DNA of 64,000 nt, from NCBI GenBank assembly GCA_963708135.1, contig OY970192.1, forward strand, positions 576,001 to 640,000, given 5' to 3'. The stretch is from an uncultured Gemmatimonadales bacterium. GTDB lineage: Bacteria; Gemmatimonadota; Gemmatimonadetes; Longimicrobiales; RSA9. The notes beneath the pieces were generated by a model. The model was not told the origin of the DNA. It ran no database searches and saw only the letters and a list, made by a program, of their open reading frames with translations. Shown one piece after another: positions 23,078-58,350 of this stretch. The stretch's first letter is position 1. Every line of letters begins with the position of its first letter. The translations under genes were made by a program, and so were the position numbers.

Positions 23078-23656
23078 TCAGGCCCGCCCAGATTCGAGTT
23101 GGATGCGCTTGGAGTAGATGACACGGTCATCGCCGTCCGAGTAGAAGTCCGGGACTCGTGCAACCTCGCAGTATCCGCGCCGCAGATAGAACTGCCGTGT
23201 CGGCTCATAGAACGGCTGGGACGAGGTCTCGATAATCACGAGTCGTGCATCCGTGCGGGCAAGCCTTCGCTCCACCTCCTGTAGCAGTCGGGTGCCGACC
23301 CCCAGGTTCTGCGCCGCCGGCGAGACCGCGATCCAGTACAGATCAATGGTGCCCGCCGTGAGCGGCGTGGGGCCGTAGCAGACGTAGCCGAGCAGGTCAC
23401 CCTCGGGGGTGAAGGCGCCCAGGACGGTGTAGTCCTGCTCGGGTGCGACGAAGTAGGCATCCAGCACGTCCAGCGCGACGCCGATCTCCTCGTCGCGGAA
23501 GAAGCCGGTCTCGCGCAGCAGCCGCTCGACCTTGCGGCGGTGGCGCCGATTGAGCGCCCGGAGCGCGACGGGCTCGGGGCTCTCCGCGGCGGCCGGGTCA
23601 CCCGCGCGGGCGTGCGTCGCCTCGGCGCGCGCGTTCGGCTCATTTGGCGTGCTCAT
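23078..23656 (-). CDS. GNAT-family N-acetyltransferase
   Basis: DLYWIAVSPAAQNLGVGTRLL (acetyl-CoA motif A), IETSSQPFYEPTRQFYLRRGY; ATGA overlap with the upstream ligase. Confidence 0.85.
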   Translation of the reverse strand: MSTPNEPNARAEATHARAGDPAAAESPEPVALRALNRRHRRKVERLLRETGFFRDEEIGVALDVLDAYFVAPEQDYTVLGAFTPEGDLLGYVCYGPTPLTAGTIDLYWIAVSPAAQNLGVGTRLLQEVERRLARTDARLVIIETSSQPFYEPTRQFYLRRGYCEVARVPDFYSDGDDRVIYSKRIQLESGRA

Positions 23657-24612
23657 GCGGCCTCCCGCACGATGCGCTCGACCAGCTCCGCGTAGCCGAG
23701 GCCGTCGGCGGCGGCCATGCGGGTGAGGCCGGCGGAGGGTGCCAGGTCCGGGTTCGGGTTCACCTCCAGCACGAAGAGCCGGCCGTCGGCGTCGCCCCGC
23801 AGGTCCACCCGCCCGTAGCCCCGCCCCTCGACGGTGGCCCAGGCGGCCAGGGCGAGGCGGCGCGCCTCCGCCAGCATCTCGGGCGCGAGCGGCGCCGGGC
23901 AAAGCGGCACGGTGGCCAGGTCCTCGACCGACCCAGGCGCCCACTTGGCCGCATAGCCGACCATCGGCCAGCTGCCCTCGGGCGTGGCGGCGAAATCGAT
24001 CTCGGCCACGGCCAGCACGCGCTCGCCGACGATCCCGACGTTCAGCTCGCGGCCGCGCAGGAACTCCTGCACGAGGAGCGGCGCGTGCTTCCACCCGGCC
24101 GTGAGGGCGCGCTCCAGCTCGGCCGCATCGCGCGCGACGCACGCCTGCGTGATCCCCACGGAAGCGTCCTCCGCGGCCGGCTTCACGATGGCGGGGAAGC
24201 GGTTCCAGGCCGGCGCGGTGGCGCCCTCGGCGGACGCCGTCCAGCTCGGCACCGGCACGCCCGCCCGCTCGAGCAGCGCGTTCGTCCGGTCCTTCCGGCG
24301 CGCGAGGGCCAGCGTCTCGGCCCCGCTGCCGGTGAGCGGCAGCCGCATCAGCTCGATGACGGCGGCCACCCGCGCCTCTCCCGCACTCGACCCGGCGGCG
24401 CCCTCGCACAGGTTGAAGACCAGGTCGGGCGCGGCGTCTCGCAGCGCGCCGACCCACGCGTCCACATGCGCGCCCACGCCCACGCGGACCGGCGCGTGGC
24501 CGAGGTCGCCGAGCGCCACGTCCACGGCCTCCACCGCCTCGAGGACGCCGCGCTCATCGGCGGTGGCGCCCGCGCGGGCGTCCACGTCGTCGTACAGCAC
24601 GGCGATCCTCAT
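23653..24612 (-). CDS. D-Ala-D-Ala-ligase-like ATP-grasp enzyme (copy 2)
   Basis: VFNLCEG, PLTGSG, IVKPAAEDASVGI, VQEFLRGRE, YAAKW, GRVDLR, LEVNPNPDL. Confidence 0.85.
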   Translation of the reverse strand: MRIAVLYDDVDARAGATADERGVLEAVEAVDVALGDLGHAPVRVGVGAHVDAWVGALRDAAPDLVFNLCEGAAGSSAGEARVAAVIELMRLPLTGSGAETLALARRKDRTNALLERAGVPVPSWTASAEGATAPAWNRFPAIVKPAAEDASVGITQACVARDAAELERALTAGWKHAPLLVQEFLRGRELNVGIVGERVLAVAEIDFAATPEGSWPMVGYAAKWAPGSVEDLATVPLCPAPLAPEMLAEARRLALAAWATVEGRGYGRVDLRGDADGRLFVLEVNPNPDLAPSAGLTRMAAADGLGYAELVERIVREAA

Positions 24613-50609: not shown

Positions 50610-51728
50610 CTAGGAGACCTTGTCGAGCCGTGCGTTCGGCTGGTGGCGCCGCCCCTCCTTGGCGAGCGGGCGGCCCTCGAGCTCCACGACGTCGGCCGTG
50701 AAGTCGTAGCGGTCCTTGAAGAGCGAGGAGCCCACGCCGTAGGAGTCGACCGGCACGCCGAGCTCCTCGAAGTGGCGGATCTTCTCCGCGTCGAAGCCGC
50801 CCGAGACCACGATCCTCACGTGCTGGAACCCCTCCGCATCCAGCGCGCGGCGCACGTTCCAGACGAGGTGCGGGTTCACGCCGCGCGGATCGAACTGGCC
50901 CATCTGCGGCAGGATCGAGCGGTCCACCATCGTCTCGGACGTGTCCAGCCGGACCCCCCACAGCCGGTCCCCGAGCGCGCGTGCCACGGCCAGCGAGGTG
51001 GCGACCGAGTCGTTCTCGAAGTCCACCAGCGAGATCACGTGCACGTCCTCCGGCATGTGCCGCGCGAAGGCCGCCGAGGCGAGCACGGTGTCGCCGTCGT
51101 ACGCCGCGATCAGCGCGTGCGGCACGGTGCCGATTCCCTTCGAGCCCCACCACGACGCCTGTGCGTCCGTGGACACGCCGATCGCGCCGGCCACGTGCGC
51201 CGCGTAGCCATCGCCCGTCTGTACCAGCCAGTGGTCGTGGCGGGCGGGGAAGAACATCACCGTCTTCGGCCATGCCGCCTCGACCACCTTCCGCGTGTTG
51301 GTGGCCACCTTCGTGCGCCGGGCGAGCACGCCCAGGTAGAGCGTCTCCAGGTGCGCGAACGCGGCGTAGGGCCCCGTGATCAGGAGCACGGTCTCCCACG
51401 GCCGGATCCGGTCGCCGTCGCGCATCGCCCGCACGTCCAGGTCGCTCCACTCGTAGCCCTCCGTGAGGCAGAGCTTCAGGATCGCGATCGCCTCGTCCAC
51501 CCCGCCCAGCCACGCGTGCTTCTTCTGGAAGACCTGCACGGTGACGAGCGGCTCCCGGCCGTCCTCCAGCAGCACGTCGCGCGCGTAGACGAAGTACTTG
51601 TCCGAGTAGTAGCCGGCCCGCATGCGCGCCGCCGGAAGCTGAAAGATCGAGGGATCGAGCCGCTCCGGCCTGCGCAGCGGCGGCGGGGGCGTGGGGCGAG
51701 GCGGGGTCTCCGGCGGCTGATCGCTCAT
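50610..51728 (-). CDS. nicotinate phosphoribosyltransferase-like protein (NAPRTase/QPRTase fold)
   Basis: GYYSDKYF, LETLYLG, GTVPHALIA, LVDFEND, GVRLDTS, IVVSGGF, YGVGS. Confidence 0.85.
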   Translation of the reverse strand: MSDQPPETPPRPTPPPPLRRPERLDPSIFQLPAARMRAGYYSDKYFVYARDVLLEDGREPLVTVQVFQKKHAWLGGVDEAIAILKLCLTEGYEWSDLDVRAMRDGDRIRPWETVLLITGPYAAFAHLETLYLGVLARRTKVATNTRKVVEAAWPKTVMFFPARHDHWLVQTGDGYAAHVAGAIGVSTDAQASWWGSKGIGTVPHALIAAYDGDTVLASAAFARHMPEDVHVISLVDFENDSVATSLAVARALGDRLWGVRLDTSETMVDRSILPQMGQFDPRGVNPHLVWNVRRALDAEGFQHVRIVVSGGFDAEKIRHFEELGVPVDSYGVGSSLFKDRYDFTADVVELEGRPLAKEGRRHQPNARLDKVS

Positions 51729-52966
51729 GCTTCTGCCTCCCTGCGTCGCTTCGTGGCGAAGTGGAGCCCGACCGAGCCCAGCAGCGTGAGCACGCCCGCC
51801 ATCGGCCACATGAACGGATACCCCCGGTACTGCGGGAACACGTGCGCGCCGACGTCGATGGCGACGCCCACCAGCATCGGCGCGAAGATGCGCCCGAAGC
51901 TGACGCTCAGGATGTAGAGCCCGGTGTAGCGGCCGATCGCCTTGTTGCCCACTATGCCCGCGAAGAGCGGGTACGGCAATGCGACGAGCGCCGCCGCGCC
52001 CACGCCGGCGCCGAGCAGCAGCAGCACCGCCGTTCCCAGGGTCCGCATGAACACGCCCGCCAGCATGACCACGCCGAGCAGCCCCGCGCCGACCTGGAGC
52101 AGCACCGCGCGGTCGTAGCGGTCGCCCAGCCGGCCGATCACCACCGACCCGATCGCCAGCCCCACCACCAGCAGCGTCATCATGAGGGAGGCCTGCGCCA
52201 CGGTGATGCCCAGCACGACCGTGCCGAACAGGAAGAAGTAGGGCCGCACGCCATCGACGGCTCCCGTCCACAGCGCGTTCGAGACCAGGAACAGCAGCGC
52301 GGCCGGCCGCTGGCGCAGGTCCGCCCAGAGCGCCCGCAGCCCGCCCGAGATGCGTTCCTCGTGCATGGCAAGGTCGAGTCCCGCGGGCGGCGCCGCCCAG
52401 ATCGTCATCCAGGTCATCCCGAGGATCAGCAGGGCGCCCAGCAGGAACGGGAGCGGCGGCCAGATCGCGTACAGCAGCCCGCTCGCCACCAGGCCGAAGC
52501 CGAGCCCCGCCGAGTGCAGCACGCCGCGTACGCCCTGCACCCGGCCTCGCCGCTCATCCGGCACCGAGTCAACCATCAGGGCCCAGAGCGGCGTCAGATA
52601 TCCGTGCAGCGCGGCGAAGAAGATGAAAGCGACCCCGGCCAGCGGCCAGTAGCCGCGAAGGAACGGTGCCGTGGCCAGGGCGGCGGCCATCAGCGGTGCG
52701 GTGATCATGAGGAAGAAGGTGCGCCGCCCGAAGCGGCGCGTCAGTCCGGCGGGCAGATGGTCGCTGAGCGTGCCGATCCAGTACGGGACCAGCAGCGCGA
52801 AGATGCCCTCGCCGCCCACGGCGAATCCGATCAGGAACGCGGAGCGGGCGTAGCGCGCGAGCAGCACCGGCAGGACGGCGACCATGAGCGTCTGCCCGGA
52901 CGTCGAGCCCAGGGTGCCCGCCGTGATGCCGTACTCCTTCAGGATCCGTCCGCGCCGGCTCGTCAC
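51725..52966 (-). CDS. MFS transporter
   Basis: GTLSD..RFGRR and GRLGDRYDR motif-A loops; about 12 TM helices; ATGA overlap with the NAPRTase gene. Confidence 0.85.
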   Translation of the reverse strand: MTSRRGRILKEYGITAGTLGSTSGQTLMVAVLPVLLARYARSAFLIGFAVGGEGIFALLVPYWIGTLSDHLPAGLTRRFGRRTFFLMITAPLMAAALATAPFLRGYWPLAGVAFIFFAALHGYLTPLWALMVDSVPDERRGRVQGVRGVLHSAGLGFGLVASGLLYAIWPPLPFLLGALLILGMTWMTIWAAPPAGLDLAMHEERISGGLRALWADLRQRPAALLFLVSNALWTGAVDGVRPYFFLFGTVVLGITVAQASLMMTLLVVGLAIGSVVIGRLGDRYDRAVLLQVGAGLLGVVMLAGVFMRTLGTAVLLLLGAGVGAAALVALPYPLFAGIVGNKAIGRYTGLYILSVSFGRIFAPMLVGVAIDVGAHVFPQYRGYPFMWPMAGVLTLLGSVGLHFATKRRREAEA

Positions 52967-53132
52967 CGATTCACTCGTCCCCTCGCTCTGCCGTCCCTCG
53001 AATCCGGCGGCCGCGGCCGCGGGGCCAATCTGGCGCGCCTGCGTCGAACGTCAAGCAAGGCCGGGGCCCGCGCGCCGTCCGGATGGACGCTCGGGACCCG
53101 ACCGGCCTGGCGCTTGCACCCTCCATCGCCTC

Positions 53133-54236
53133 ATGCGCGCAGCCAGCCTCCTGCTTCCCCTGGTCCTTGCCGCCGCGCCGCTCTCGGCCCAGGCGATCCG
53201 GCTCCGCGCCTTCACGCTATCCACCGGACCCCGCCTCTCCGCCGGCACGCGCGGCACCGCCCTCTTCGCCGCCGCCGCCGACCTCTCGTTGCCCTGGCTG
53301 GGAGCCGGCCGGGCGCGGGTGGAGCTCGGCACGTCGAGCGCGCCCCTCGACCCGGAGGACGGTCCCGGGACGCGCCGGGACCGCCAGGCGACGCTCGGAT
53401 ACGCCCGCTGCCTCGGCTCCGCCGCCGCCGTCGGCCTCGGCGGCATCCGGCCGCGGGTCGGCGTCGGCATCGCCCTCCACTGGGTGCGCACCGACGCTCT
53501 CGCCCATGCCGGGGACACGACCGGGGACGGGCGCTTCGCCCGCCGGAGCTCCGCCGTGCGCCCCGCGCTCCACGCCGAGACCGGCCTCGCCCTGCCCCTC
53601 GCTCGCAACCACCGCCTCGACCTCGAGATCGCCGCGCGGGCGGCGGCCCTCCTGGGCGGCCCAGACGCGCTCGAACTCCGCTTCGGCGTGCGCTACGCGC
53701 TCGACGGCCGACCTTCCGGGTTGGTCGCCGGGGAGCCTGTGGCCGCGCCTCCGGACCCACCGGCCGACGTCGAGCCGGCCCCGGCGCCGGGTGTGGCCGC
53801 ACCCGGCGCCACCGGCGCCGCTGCGCTCCCCGCCGCCATCCGCGCCGCCTTCCGGACGGCGCTCTCCAACGCCCTCGCGGACGCCGCGGATCGGGGGCTT
53901 ATCCGGGAGGAAGGGCCCGGCTTCGCCCTCCTCGACTCCGCCTTCATCGGCGGCCGGCTGCGGCCCGAGACGGCCGCGGCGCTGCGGCGGGCCGGCGCTC
54001 GCCTGACCACGGCGGGCGCCCGGGTCTCGATCCTCGCCGACGAGGACGCGGATGCGACGGCCCGTCCGTCCACCGCCACGCTGCGGGCCGTGGCGGTGGC
54101 GCAGGCGCTCGCGGCCGGCGGGCTCGCGCGCTCCGCGATGCGCCTGGAGGTGGTGCGCCGGGCCGCCGGCGGCGACGTCGCCGTGCGGCCCCGCCGCCTC
54201 AGCGCCCGCGCTGCGCCAGCGTCACCCCGCCGATGA
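53133..54236 (+). CDS. hypothetical exported protein (beta-barrel-like N-terminus, degenerate OmpA-C-like C-terminus)
   Basis: Signal LSA|Q; amphipathic strands ending LRFGVRY; Pro-rich linker; LRAVAVAQALAAGGL. Confidence 0.45.
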   Translation: MRAASLLLPLVLAAAPLSAQAIRLRAFTLSTGPRLSAGTRGTALFAAAADLSLPWLGAGRARVELGTSSAPLDPEDGPGTRRDRQATLGYARCLGSAAAVGLGGIRPRVGVGIALHWVRTDALAHAGDTTGDGRFARRSSAVRPALHAETGLALPLARNHRLDLEIAARAAALLGGPDALELRFGVRYALDGRPSGLVAGEPVAAPPDPPADVEPAPAPGVAAPGATGAAALPAAIRAAFRTALSNALADAADRGLIREEGPGFALLDSAFIGGRLRPETAAALRRAGARLTTAGARVSILADEDADATARPSTATLRAVAVAQALAAGGLARSAMRLEVVRRAAGGDVAVRPRRLSARAAPASPRR

Positions 54237-54511
54237 TGACCGCGGCGCCCACGAGCTGGAGCGCACGCGGAACCTCGCCGAGCCAGGCCCACGCGACGAG
54301 CAGCGCCAGCACGGGCACGAGGTTGGAGTACGTCGAGGTGCGTGTATTGCCGAGACGGCTGACGCCGCGGTACCAGAGCAGGTACGCCAGCCCGATGCTC
54401 AGCGCGCCCGAGAACGTCACGGCCGCCCATGCCTCCAGGGGCACGGCGTCGAGATCCACGCCGCGCAGCGCCGGTAGGCCCATGAGACACCCTGTGTCAA
54501 CCCCCCTGTGT

Positions 54512-55759
54512 TCAAGCAGCCGCCGCGGTGGGTTCCGCGGGGGTGAAGAAGGGGATAGCCCGTCCGTGTCGGGAGGGGTCGTAGGTGGACCGATTGTGCC
54601 AGCAGCGCCACAGCACGCGGACCCAGGCTCGGGCGAGGATTCGGATTGCGTGCGGGTGATCGCAGCCGCGGGCACGGGCGCACTTGTAGACGGCGGCGGC
54701 CCAGGGGTGGGCATGGCGGGAGTTGTCCGCCCAGGTGGTGAGGGCTTGTCGCAGGCGCTTGTTGCAGGCGAAGCGGCAGGCGACGCCGCGATGCTTGCCG
54801 GAGCTGTGCGTAACGGGGGCGACGCCGGCTTCGGCGGCGAGCTGGGCGTCGGTGGCGAAGCGGAGCCGGTCGTCGCCGAGCTCGGCGAGAATCTGGGCGG
54901 CATTGATGGTGCCGGTGCGGGGGAAGGACTTCAGGATCTCACCGTCGGGATGCTGCGCGAGGTGAGCGGCGATGAGCCCGTCGAGCTCGCGGATCTGAGC
55001 CACGAGAGGGCGGAGGACGGCGACCAGGGAACGGACGAGCTGACCTTTGGTCTCGCTCTCGAGCTCGGCGGCCTGCCCTGCGGGGGCGGAGCGGAGCCGC
55101 TCGAGGAGCTGATCGACCGGCCGGCGGCCGCAGTAGGCAGTGCGCTTGAGGAATCGTTCGAGGCGCTTGGGCCCGAGGCGGGCGGCGCTCTCCGGGGTGG
55201 GGTAGGCGTCCAGGAAATCGAGGGCGATCGGGCTATCGACATCGGCGAAAATGGCGGCAGCGCCGGCCCAGAAGCTGTCGAGCAGGCTGCGGAGCTGATT
55301 GGCGAGCTGGACGCGGGTCGCGACCAGGTCATCGCGGGTGCGAACGGCGGCGCGAAGCGCCTTGGTGCGATCGGAGGGGACCCGGAGCGGCCGGAATCGA
55401 TGCCCATCGGTACGCAGGACGTCGGCGAGGATGTAGGCATCACCGGGATCGCTCTTCCCCGGAGCCGCGGCGTAGCGGGGCCGGGTGGCCTTGAGGGCGT
55501 TCGGGTGGATCGGAACGACCGGGAAGCCGGCCTCGACCAACGTATCCACCAGAAGTCCGGACGGCCGCTCGATGGCGATGGGCAGCTGCGCCGGAGAGCT
55601 GACGCGACGCAGGCGCCGGATCAGCTCACTCAGCCCACCGGCCGTGTGAGGGATGGTGAACGCGTCAACGAGGGCGCCGCTGAGATCGAGCACACAGACG
55701 TCATGCTTGTCGCTGGCCCAGTCAATTCCGACGAGGTAGCTTGGATCCAGTCCTTCCAC
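54512..55759 (-). CDS. IS110-family transposase/recombinase
   Basis: RuvC-like DEDD residues in GIDWAS, AIERPS and KSDPGDA; Tnp domain AGVAPVTHSSGK (catalytic Ser), NKRLRQAL; GGAGGTGA RBS before the GTG. Confidence 0.95.
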   Translation of the reverse strand: MEGLDPSYLVGIDWASDKHDVCVLDLSGALVDAFTIPHTAGGLSELIRRLRRVSSPAQLPIAIERPSGLLVDTLVEAGFPVVPIHPNALKATRPRYAAAPGKSDPGDAYILADVLRTDGHRFRPLRVPSDRTKALRAAVRTRDDLVATRVQLANQLRSLLDSFWAGAAAIFADVDSPIALDFLDAYPTPESAARLGPKRLERFLKRTAYCGRRPVDQLLERLRSAPAGQAAELESETKGQLVRSLVAVLRPLVAQIRELDGLIAAHLAQHPDGEILKSFPRTGTINAAQILAELGDDRLRFATDAQLAAEAGVAPVTHSSGKHRGVACRFACNKRLRQALTTWADNSRHAHPWAAAVYKCARARGCDHPHAIRILARAWVRVLWRCWHNRSTYDPSRHGRAIPFFTPAEPTAAAA

Positions 55760-55789
55760 GCCTCACCTCCGAGCAGAGATTCACTCCCT

Positions 55790-56000
55790 CGCTCCGGCGT
55801 TGGAAGGTCTCACCGATCGCTCACTGAAAGGCGCTCTCGGCTTCAGGTGCCGTGGCGCTACACCCTGTGGTCGGTTGGGGCCTTCCACGCCGGGCAGGGG
55901 AGCGGGTCTCATGCGGGCCGTCGAGCGGCAAGCGACGCTGGCTCTCCCTACCCGGACGCCGAAGCACTTCTCTTGAGCGGCGCGAATCTACGCCCCGCTG
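55790..56000 (-). ncRNA. putative IS110 bridge RNA (5' hairpin, target-binding loop, donor-binding loop)
   Basis: Stems 55941-55955/55890-55903 and 55881-55893/55794-55807 enclose internal loops. Loop strands CACAGGGUGU and CAGUGAG match the circle junction, and CAUGAG matches the target site. Confidence 0.75.
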
Positions 56001-57011
56001 AGGGTAAGGTGCACCAGTGAGCACGATGCCCGCCGTGCCGCACCACAGCGTCCAGGCGGTGACCGGGATCGGGCCGTAGCGCTCCACGAGGTCGCGCGCC
56101 CCGACCGTGTAGAGCGACCAGGAAGTCGATGCGCCCAGCATGATCGCCTCGCCGGCCGCCGAGGAGCCGCCCGCCTGCGCACCCGGGCCGCCCAGCACGA
56201 CGAGCGCCATCCCCGCCACCGTCGCCACCACCCCCACCCACGTGGCGGCACCCACGCGCTCGTGCCCGACGGCCGCCGAGAGCAAGGCCGTCAGGACCGG
56301 CGAACCGGCCAGCAGCAGGCTCGCGATCCCCGCCCGCGTCATTGCCAGCCCCGAGATGAACAGGATCTGGTAGAGCACGTTTCCCACCAGCCCCAGGACG
56401 AGCACCCGCGGCACGTCCGCTCGAGCCGGCAGCGGCACCGGGCCGCGTGCCCGCAAGACGGCGTAGACCACGAGCGAGGCCAGGGGGAAGCGGAGCGCGT
56501 TGAAGCCGAGCGGCGGAAGGACCGCGAGCGCATCCTTCGCGACGGAGAAGTTCACGGCCCAGATGACGACCATCACGAGCAGGCCGCGGCCCGGGTTCCA
56601 CGGCGCGGGCGCGTGGCCGGTGGTCCCTGCCGGGCCCCGCGCGGAGCCGCGCACGGCGGGGAGAGGCCTCACCGGTACGCGACCGCGGCGAGGACGTTCG
56701 CCAGCGCTGGAGGCGGGTGGGTGGACCCGTGGACGAGACAGACGAGGCTCACGAGGTCTCCGGTGCACACACGGTCGGACAGGGCCGGCGGCCACGAGGG
56801 CCGCCTGCCGGCAAGATCCGCGGCCTTGCCGGACCCCGCAAGCGCGCGCGCCGTGCCACGTGGAGCGGCGGCGAGTCTCTGCACGAAGGCACTCGGAGCT
56901 GAGCCCTGGCCGGCCAACCCGCGCCGCGGAGCACTGCTTGCGGCGCCCGCTCGCGCGGGCCAACTTCAGCCGCTGGACGGCCGTGGAGGCACGCTCGCGA
57001 AGGAGGGCGCA

Positions 57012-57287
57012 TTGGTTGCCGCAGTGGTGCTGATCCGGGTCGCGCGCGAGCACATACCGCAGGCAGCGCGCGAGGTGGCCGGGATCGAGGGGGTGTCGGA
57101 GGTCTACTCGGTCTCCGGTGACTGGGACCTCGTCGCCATCCTGCGCGTCCCGGAGTGGGAGCAGATCGCGCAGGTGGTGACGGAGCGGCTCGCGGCGATC
57201 GGCGGCATCGAGTCGACCAACACGCTCGTGGCGTTCCGGGTCTACTCGAAGCAGGACCTGGAGGGCGCGTTCGACATGTTCGAGTAG
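57012..57287 (+). CDS. Lrp/AsnC ligand-binding (RAM) domain protein
   Basis: TTG start after AGGAGG; IEGVSEVYSVSGDWDLVAILRV, GIESTNTLVAF. Confidence 0.85.
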   Translation: MVAAVVLIRVAREHIPQAAREVAGIEGVSEVYSVSGDWDLVAILRVPEWEQIAQVVTERLAAIGGIESTNTLVAFRVYSKQDLEGAFDMFE

Positions 57288-57295
57288 GCGGGCCT

Positions 57296-58048
57296 CTACT
57301 CGCGCACTTCGTTGGGTGGGCGGGTGGCAGCCTCCGGCGCCGGCGGCTCCTCTGCGGTGGGCCGGGCAGGGGCGTGGCGCTCCGGCGCGGCGTAGCGGTG
57401 GCGCTGGTACATGTCGCGCGCGATCTCGCCGGCGATGCCCTGGGCACCAAGGCCGAAGGCGATGCCGGCGGCCAGCGCGCCGGCGCCGACCACCGCGATG
57501 AAGAAGACGAGCACGATATCCTGCGCGATGTCGAGCTGCTCCAGCGCCATGAAGGCGGCCAGCAGGATGACGGCCGCCTTCGCCGCGCGCGCCAGGGTCG
57601 GGCCGCCCGAAACCCCGCCGGCGGAGGCGAGCACGAGGTCCTTGACGAACTCGCCGAGCAGGATGCCGAGGACGAGCACTGCCACGGCGGCCATGACGTG
57701 AGGGATGTAGGCGAGCAGCTCCGCGAAGAGCGAGCTTACCGCGTCCACGCCGAGCGCGTTCGCCGCCAGCAGGATCACGAGCAGCATGAGGGTCCAGAAG
57801 ACCAGCTTGGCCAGGACCGTCGATGGGTCCAGCGAGGTGCCGGCGCGCTCCAGCGCCTCGATGACGCCGCCATCGCGCATCCAGCGATCGAAGCCAACGC
57901 GGTGCAGCGCGATGTCGGTCCCTCGCTCCACCATCTTGGCGATCGCGTAGCCCGCGAGCAGGAGCCCGAGCGCGGCGGCGAGGTGGGGCAGGAACTCGAC
58001 GATCTGGACGATTCCGTCCTGGAGTCGCTGGCTCAGGGCTTCCTGCAT
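57296..58048 (-). CDS. TM_helix / small mechanosensitive-channel-related membrane protein (CmpX-like)
   Basis: FLPHLAAAL, YIPHVMAAVAVL, MALEQLDIA, GIAFGLG. Confidence 0.75.
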   Translation of the reverse strand: MQEALSQRLQDGIVQIVEFLPHLAAALGLLLAGYAIAKMVERGTDIALHRVGFDRWMRDGGVIEALERAGTSLDPSTVLAKLVFWTLMLLVILLAANALGVDAVSSLFAELLAYIPHVMAAVAVLVLGILLGEFVKDLVLASAGGVSGGPTLARAAKAAVILLAAFMALEQLDIAQDIVLVFFIAVVGAGALAAGIAFGLGAQGIAGEIARDMYQRHRYAAPERHAPARPTAEEPPAPEAATRPPNEVRE

Positions 58049-58125
58049 CAGGGCGGCCTCCGTCGGGGGTCGAGCGGAACGCTGGGGCCGTGGCCTGGGA
58101 CGCGCAAGGGGCGGGAGGTTGCACG

Positions 58126-58350
58126 ATGCGCCGATTCAGCGATGCGTGGGGGAGGGAGTGGGACGTCGTGGTGGGGAGGGAGTCCTGGGGCACCCTCTAC
58201 GCCCTCTTCGTGCCCGTGGCGGGAACGGAGCCCGTGCGGCAGGTGATGCTCGACTCCGCCGGCTACGAGCAGGCGCAGCTCGAGCTCTCCGACATGGACG
58301 ACGCGGCGCTGGCGGAGCTGTTCCGCCGGACCGGTCCAAAGCAATCCTGA
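58126..58350 (+). CDS. small hypothetical protein
   Basis: GGGAGG RBS; MRRFSDAWGREWDVVVGRESWG. Confidence 0.6.
   Translation: MRRFSDAWGREWDVVVGRESWGTLYALFVPVAGTEPVRQVMLDSAGYEQAQLELSDMDDAALAELFRRTGPKQS

Follow-up and report, generated by a model that had tools for sequence, protein, structure and literature searches.

Guide register, natural sites and gene-start insertion of an IS110-family element with a predicted bridge RNA

A 64,000-nucleotide stretch of DNA from an uncultured Gemmatimonadales bacterium (the window; all positions below refer to it) carries an IS110-family insertion element inside a transporter gene. A first-pass annotation made from the letters alone had read a hairpin in this element as the target-binding loop of a bridge RNA, and had derived from it a preferred target of about CAGCGT(C)GCTCATG. 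One strand of the loop matched the right side of the reconstructed empty site at every position (CAUGAG against CTCATG, 6/6). The other strand matched only GCT when no gap was allowed, but 8 of 9 positions when one C of the guide was bulged. The arithmetic of both alignments is correct. Does the left guide of this element pair with its target around a bulge, or is its register different from that suggested by a single insertion site? The features needed for an answer are as follows.

54487 to 56019, minus strand: body of the IS110-family element, 1533 bp (3 x 511), with four copies in the genome that show 0-2 differences and sharp common ends
56020 to 56021, minus strand: left copy of the core dinucleotide CT, directly before the element at 4/4 copies
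54485 to 54486, minus strand: right copy of the core dinucleotide CT, directly after the element at 4/4 copies
54512 to 55759, minus strand: recombinase ORF, 415 aa (Pfam DEDD_Tnp_IS110 and Transposase_20; NCBIfam NF033542)
56022 to 56651, minus strand: upstream part of an EamA/DMT transporter gene (Pfam EamA, E 1.3e-24)
54202 to 54483, minus strand: downstream part of the same gene (Pfam EamA, E 8.1e-17)

The recombinase matched PF01548 (DEDD_Tnp_IS110, E 2.4e-37) and PF02371 (Transposase_20, E 2e-17), and it scored 204.7 bits against NCBIfam NF033542, 'IS110 family RNA-guided transposase', which has a cut-off of 140. It has both the DEDD RuvC-like N-terminal domain and the Tnp C-terminal domain that define the family. 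The EamA/DMT gene is split by the element, and each half matches PF00892. CT is present at both ends of the element (56021-20 and 54486-85). The five uninterrupted orthologues examined all run on directly from one half to the other, with just the one codon between that the empty site predicts. The empty site CATCGTG-CT-CATG of the first-pass annotation was correct; with one more base it is CATCGTG-CT-CATGG. An orthologue of the EamA gene was found in 37 of 40 genomes of the family, a tally that includes two flagged as unpublished. In a DNA search of 73 genomes of the same family, the element was detected in only two others, both times as fragments. Among the sequencing runs it was present in one only, the probable source, with small shares in 19 and next to none in 1. 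Because the copies differ at no more than 2 of 1533 bases, the insertion in the window is recent.

Two loops are encoded between the recombinase ORF and the left end of the element, which is its high-coordinate end in the window.

55890 to 55955, minus strand: target-binding loop (TBL) of the predicted bridge RNA, with compensatory changes at 13/14 and 3/4 pairs among 115 relatives
55813 to 55874, minus strand: donor-binding loop, with guides that match the element ends and stems backed by covariation (helices 3-5)

The coordinates and strings that had been given for the TBL all proved correct on the minus strand. Its outer stem is formed by CCGGGUAGGGAGAGC (55955-55941) and GCUCCCCUGCCCGG (55903-55890), with 14 pairs and one bulged A. 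Its inner hairpin consists of GCCG (55929-26), CUCGA and CGGC (55920-17). The two loop strands between them are CAGCGUCGCU (55940-31) and CCGCAUGAG (55916-08). Among 115 distinct relatives, the outer stem had changes on both sides at 13 of its 14 pairs and was paired in 95.8% of cells; for the inner hairpin the values were 3 of 4 pairs and 99.1%. The whole left-end RNA has six helices with 94.3% of cells paired and 28 of 36 pairs changed on both sides. The covariation score was not equalled in any of 500 shuffles, and pairing fell from 94% to 41-49% when the 3' partners were shifted by 1-3 columns. By these comparative measures the TBL structure is more than chance.

A single-sequence minimum free energy fold of the left end gave a different structure from which the TBL was absent, and the comparative structure was used instead. 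Rfam gave no match at the gathering threshold in the window, nor any at E up to 1 in 55700-56100.

The second loop carries guides for the ends of the element itself. Its left donor guide (LDG), ACAGGGUGU (55868-60), is identical to the last 9 nt of the element at the right end, and its right donor guide (RDG), CAGUGAG (55826-20), fits the left end as the reverse complement of CT-CACTG. The same rule located the ends of the element in the relatives. The second loop is therefore the donor-binding loop and the first is the target-binding loop, in agreement with the original interpretation of the hairpin, which is also supported by covariation of the first loop with the flanks (see below). Taken together, a structured non-coding RNA with two internal loops lies upstream of the recombinase ORF. 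By its sequence, the element is a bridge-RNA-guided member of the IS110 family, IS110 group, with the RNA in the left end, and RNA-dependent recombination is predicted for it. A sigma-70-type promoter across the circle junction was looked for by eye; TTGACA occurs in the right end, with no convincing -10 at 17-19 nt.

In the window (55856-55859, minus strand) and in the same columns of relatives, the two bases after the LDG are AG, UG or CG and not the core CU. The last base of the LDG is often mismatched to the right end in relatives of this clade. The left donor guide thus appears, from these columns, to do without core pairing in this clade, unlike in IS621.

For the register of the target guides, we collected 160 loci encoding relatives of the recombinase, anchored on the protein (54-89% identity in the best segment). 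They gave 145 unique sites with 124 usable left flanks and 117 usable right flanks. A few places were sampled twice; for example, L019 and L123 are one place seen in a metagenome-assembled genome (MAG) and in a metagenome. Loop columns were taken from the alignments, and element ends were located with each locus's own donor guides. Boundaries of the left end derived from the alignments failed for a subgroup with longer left ends, for which the donor guide was used. Covariation between guide and flank was tested against 1000 permutations.

The first loop covaried with the target on both sides of a shared core. The covariation was strictly diagonal and ungapped in the 124 left and 117 right flanks. 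Left guide positions -1 to -6 covaried with flank positions -1 to -6 at z = 11.5, 9.1, 7.5, 7.2, 4.4 and 3.5, and no covariation was found at -7 to -9 (z = 0.2 at -7). Right guide positions covaried with flank positions +1 to +5 at z = 10.6, 12.3, 13.2, 14.0 and 8.6, and there was none from +6 onward (z = -0.8 at +6). These positions define the two target guides.

55931 to 55938, minus strand: left target guide GCGUCG with core CU, from covariation at -1 to -6
55908 to 55914, minus strand: right target guide GCAUG with core AG, the reverse complement of CT-CATGC, from covariation at +1 to +5

Read in this diagonal register (left 6+2, right 2+5), the guides specify GCGTCG-CT-CATGC as the optimal target, rather than the proposed CAGCGT(C)GCTCATG: the register of the family is ungapped, with 6 nt plus core on the left. 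The longer left guide assumed before does not hold, as positions -7 and -8 (A, C) are invariant in the family and lack covariation with the target. The same is true of the two 5' Cs of CCGCAUGAG, which belong to a constant part of the loop. In distant relatives, changes of the core from CT to AT or GT were tracked in the left guide, the right guide, the right donor guide and the left flank. The left end was placed such that the core had to agree with the final two bases of the left guide; the left core match was thereby imposed and is not independent evidence.

In L081, L084 and L085, of a distant subgroup, AT is the core set by the left, right and right donor guides and is present at the left junction; GT is found at the right junction, so that the cores at the two junctions differ. 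L021 and L025, in one MAG, have different target loops at near-identical sites (...GAGCCTCTCGG-CT-CATACGGCTCC...). The loop of L021 fits its site and that of L025 does not, which suggests that the loop changed after insertion or that there was exchange between copies. At about 1440-1500 of L031, a partial copy of the element's own left end precedes the element (GCTCATTGGTGCACCTTCGG, then GCTCATTGGTGCACC), and this element looks like one inserted into or beside the end of another copy.

The natural sites matched the two arms to different degrees. In the flanks of the family, the right arm matched at rates of.98,.96,.97,.91 and.78 for +1 to +5. The left arm matched at rates of.99,.79,.55,.54,.54 and.40 for -1 to -6, against.87,.54,.29,.27,.38 and.27 in permuted pairs. 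By these rates the right arm and core are close to obligatory, and the left arm is read loosely, at about 50% per position beyond -2. Two or fewer left matches were seen at 16 of the 124 sites, where permutation gave 49%; no more than about a quarter of the natural sites of this clade would therefore look random in the left arm. Relatives with exactly the left guide of the window element had a mean of 4.07/6 ungapped matches over 14 sites (seven sites at 4, five at 5, one at 3 and one at 1), and the right arm matched 5/5 at 12 of 13 of their sites.

The first-pass annotation had named insertion sites lacking GCTCATG as one observation that would speak against its reading. All four insertion sites in the genome have G-CT-CATG in common, so this objection does not arise. 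Their left matches were 2, 1, 3 and 4 of 6 and their right matches 4, 4, 5 and 5 of 5, the second copy being that in the window.

56022 to 56027, minus strand: left target of the occupied window site, ATCGTG, 1/6 against GCGTCG (only G at -1)
54480 to 54484, minus strand: right target of the occupied window site, CATGG, 4/5 against CATGC

With these values the window site was the poorest of 18. It is not complementary to both guides, which concerns the quality of the site and not the membership of the element in the family. The genome holds 1453 GCTCATG sites, and 279 sites at which the right arm is perfect and three or more of the six left positions match. On the scale of 11 positions one site reaches 11/11, 32 reach 10/11 and 418 reach 9/11, and the scores of the four copies are 9, 8, 6 and 5; the 11/11 site and all 32 sites at 10/11 are unoccupied, and only the copy L004 is among the 9/11 sites. 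The ungapped left matches of the four sites were no better than those of random GCTCATG sites, so that no ungapped left signal was seen in this genome. The sole perfect 13-bp target in the genome, GCGTCG-CT-CATGC (G000:C1, about 47316, minus strand), is empty; read on the other strand it is ATG AGC GAC GC, which could be a gene start.

We consider it likely that insertion was guided in the ungapped 6+2/2+5 register, with a right-arm half-match in the window, and that the bulge is a coincidence. The 5' loop strand (GCGUCG-CU) would pair with the bottom strand left of the CT core, as in IS621, and the 3' loop strand (GCAUG-AG) with the top strand right of the core, and this pairing between guide and target would drive the choice of site. 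The window copy would have entered the EamA gene through the core and 4 of 5 right positions, with G at -1 alone on the left, as an off-optimum event. As a rule for the guide, the bulged match was not borne out: off-diagonal z values ranged from -2.1 to 0.7, and P was about 0.11 at GCTCATG sites. A single guide bulge takes 11.4% of the 1453 GCTCATG sites to 5/6 or better; at this chance level the bulged match at the window site alone is not significant, and the 8/9 alignment is most likely coincidental as judged from these counts. Bulges in the target strand gave a weak excess (7 of 50 against 6.6% expected, p = 0.045).

The left guide might nevertheless slip. Its quasi-repetitive sequence CAGCGUCG could loop out one nucleotide and keep 5-6 pairs, in which case sites such as CATCGTG-CT would be guided on both arms; we judge both parts of this explanation unlikely. 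With one guide bulge, three of the four sites in the genome reach at least 5/6, where the chance per site is 0.114; simple arithmetic puts this at about 0.005, post hoc and for four sites. The bulge would lie at -3 in L001, at -2 in the window copy and at -4 in L003 (6/6), a different position in each. Among 50 sites with 3/6 or less ungapped, 10 reach at least 5/6 when bulged, against 8.6% (p = 0.009), but three of the 10 are copies from this genome, and L019 and L123 are one site counted twice. Five relatives (L019/L123 taken once) have 5/6 with a bulge at -4, and L089 at -2/-3. For IS621, some off-targets seemed tolerant of insertions in the target in the available text of Durrant et al. 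2024 (PMC11208160). What decides against slipping for us is the family: off-diagonal covariation is absent from the 124 flanks, two of the invoked matches fall at guide positions -7/-8, where the family shows neither variation nor covariation, and the same guide reads its targets ungapped in the 14 relatives, with the mean of 4.07/6 given above.

The equality of the four ungapped left matches with random expectation could also mean that the left guide is essentially idle in this host, and that core and right arm (G-CT-CATG) decide together with another factor such as the state of transcription or translation or survival of the insertion. That the high-scoring sites of the genome (11/11, 10/11, 9/11) are mostly empty, and that three of the four occupied sites lie at gene starts, would fit this explanation and the factors it invokes, both of which we hold to be improbable. 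Positions -1 to -6 covary strongly with targets throughout the family, and the exact left guide of the window also tracks targets in the relatives. Four sites are too few to show the absence of a left-arm effect, and empty perfect sites may be lethal or rare events. Alteration of the left flank after insertion, or arrival of this copy in the EamA gene by homologous recombination, would account for the poor left match; it has no direct support, and we give it hardly any weight. Both junctions are precise and bear CT, like those of the other copies, removal of the element restores an EamA frame collinear with that of 5/5 orthologues, and the event is recent. Guided insertion in the ungapped register, with a half-match at the window site, thus remains the preferred reading.

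The reverse complement of CT-CATG is CATG-AG, which makes the idea of insertion at gene starts testable. The first-pass annotation had supposed that targets could often coincide with ATG-AGC gene starts, and this was supported: the core lies 2 nt after a start codon of the opposite strand at three of the four sites in the genome and at 107 of 123 sites in relatives (ATG 75, GTG 26, TTG 6). At the three sites in the genome a long ORF begins with the ATG and runs antisense to the element. One ORF encodes a 336-aa RnfD/NqrB-family protein, with the Pfam match starting from residue 10; one has 597 aa with an amidase domain from residue 179, and its true start is uncertain; one has 218 aa and no family. 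Shine-Dalgarno (SD)-like boxes (GGAGG, GAGG, GAGAG) precede all three. The window copy is the exception, as it lies within the EamA gene on the same strand. In the relatives, an SD-like motif lies 4-16 nt upstream of the start codon in 52 of 105 cases, against 16 and 19 of 105 in control windows, and the frame stays open for at least 100 codons at 52 of 77 sites, against 18 and 39 for the other frames.

Two unoccupied sites in the window had been singled out as similar to the target.

23646 to 23658, plus strand: GGCGTG-CT-CATGC (left 2/6, right 5/5), at the start of a GNAT gene
51718 to 51730, plus strand: TGATCG-CT-CATGC (left 3/6, right 5/5), at the start of a QRPTase-family gene

Their positions were correct, and both are real starts of minus-strand genes. 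As special targets they did not stand out, since with 7/11 and 8/11 they are ordinary among the 279 comparable sites of the genome.

The strand opposite to the recombinase gene is open over the whole element.

54482 to 56020, plus strand: antisense ORF spanning the entire element and sharing the frame of the site's ATG at 54482; open to the junction in 102 of 123 relatives

In the window this ORF ends at the TGA at 56018-20, formed by the last two bases of the element and the A of the core, and the same frame belongs to an ORF at 51761-56020 (plus strand). Its product matched no Pfam or NCBIfam family. Of 123 unique relatives, 102 keep this frame free of stops as far as the junction; the two remaining antisense frames have medians of 10 and 11 stops, and no more than one stop occurs in just 1 and 0 elements, respectively. 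The element length is a multiple of three in 109 of 123 relatives (33 of 43 distinct lengths), and in 113 of 123 (23 of 30 distinct lengths) the 'non-coding' left end has a length that leaves 2 on division by three. The overlapping part could stay open through the codon bias of the recombinase gene. Such bias cannot account for the left end, where the 109 elements with lengths in multiples of three have 11 stops in total in the antisense frame, against 106 and 194 in the others.

Very long ORFs at 51761-56020 (plus strand, 1419 aa) and 55821-58193 (minus strand, 790 aa) run antisense to or across real genes. Such ORFs are typical of high-GC DNA, and their length alone is no evidence of a gene here.

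The outward terminus of the element (56000-56019, plus strand, and relatives) reads GGAAGGTGCACCA(G/A)TG, also written AAGGTGCACCA(G/A)TG, and the core AG comes next. In 120 of 123 relatives the last three bases of the terminus are GTG (69) or ATG (51). An SD-like motif precedes this terminal start by 4-16 nt in 111 of 123 relatives, where control windows have it in 13 and 9 of 123. The terminal GTG or ATG overlaps the junction TGA and sits at the place of the host ATG relative to codon 2, which suggests translational coupling that would leave the host gene expressed. The terminal sequence is also needed for recombination, so its conservation is not specific evidence for coupling.

We put forward as a tentative idea, possible but not probable on these sequences, that the design of the clade allows insertion at the start of a gene while the gene stays active, through translational coupling. 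The right target guide would read the antisense of a start codon followed by AG, so that the element would land 2 nt after ATG and always antisense to the gene. The RBS and ATG of the host would then translate an ORF through the entire element, which is kept open and stops at the TGA created at the far junction; the lengths of the element and of its left end would be held at fixed residues modulo 3. The left terminus would supply an outward AAGGT(G) SD-like box, a spacer of 5-6 nt and a GTG or ATG overlapping this TGA (GTGA/ATGA). From there the displaced gene could re-initiate by coupling, and the continuous translation would protect the read-through transcript from polarity. If this is true, the IS900-type 'hed' ORF would be at least partly a coupling device and not an independent protein-coding gene.

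Insertion of IS900 is said to fall between RBS and ATG. The clade studied here inserts 2 nt after ATG, with an antisense ORF that borrows the host start codon. As far as the available text of PMC8141618 describes it, hed is an ORF on the complementary strand that spans the whole of IS900 and has no RBS or start codon of its own; IS900 targets translation initiation signals, by the title of Doran et al. 1997 cited there. Compared by these descriptions (PMC8141618), our clade is similar in two respects: its complementary-strand ORF spans the whole element without a start or RBS of its own, and it inserts at host translation initiation signals in one orientation. Searches of the literature on IS110 bridge RNAs with start codons and on IS900 hed brought up no paper that connects the right target guide with start codons or with hed.

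The comparison with IS621 follows the available text of Durrant et al. 2024 (PMC11208160), in which the RNA is in the left end, its first loop reads the target and its second the donor. The two systems share a DEDD + Tnp recombinase, a two-loop RNA in the left end with the target loop before the donor loop, a CT core in the guides, and a left guide in the sense of the top strand with a right guide in reverse complement (PMC11208160). They differ in that the left guide is 6+2 here and 7+2 in IS621, and the right guide 5+2 here and 2+2, extendable to 7, in IS621; longer right guides than that of IS621 are described for some of its orthologues (PMC11208160). The bases after the left donor guide are AG, UG or CG here and the core CU in IS621, the natural target is a start-codon context here and ATCAGGC-CT-AC in IS621, and the left arm is matched only loosely in the natural sites of this clade, unlike in IS621 (PMC11208160).

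For IS621, complementarity across the core and one arm is enough for recombination in vitro in the available text of Xie et al. 2026 (bioRxiv 10.64898/2026.08.31.748434). The window site, with core and right arm and 1/6 on the left, resembles such a half-match; for IS621 the half-match comes from in vitro and re-analysed data, while here it is inferred from a natural site (bioRxiv 10.64898/2026.08.31.748434). Events guided by the right target only were not scorable for IS621, whose right guide is 4 nt, according to the same text (bioRxiv 10.64898/2026.08.31.748434). In ISPpu10, as the available text of bioRxiv 10.64898/2026.03.19.712850 has it, target choice adds a stem-loop in the target DNA to the pairing. 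ISPpu10 is likewise an IS110 element whose natural target choice goes beyond the pairing of loop and target (bioRxiv 10.64898/2026.03.19.712850).

The published rules for bridge RNAs could be read from raw sequence at this locus. A single insertion site was a poor basis for the register of the guides, and the relatives corrected the target to GCGTCG-CT-CATGC. That right arm and core are stricter than the left arm bears on the off-targets of bridge recombinases as genome editors, and the natural sites of this clade would be a natural counterpart of the recently described half-match reaction. The regularities of the clade, namely start-codon targeting, an antisense ORF through the whole element, lengths in multiples of three and an outward SD-like box with a start codon, tie the 1997 observation of IS900 'hed' to the bridge-RNA mechanism. 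Combined, they lead to a testable idea of how such elements may limit the damage that they do.
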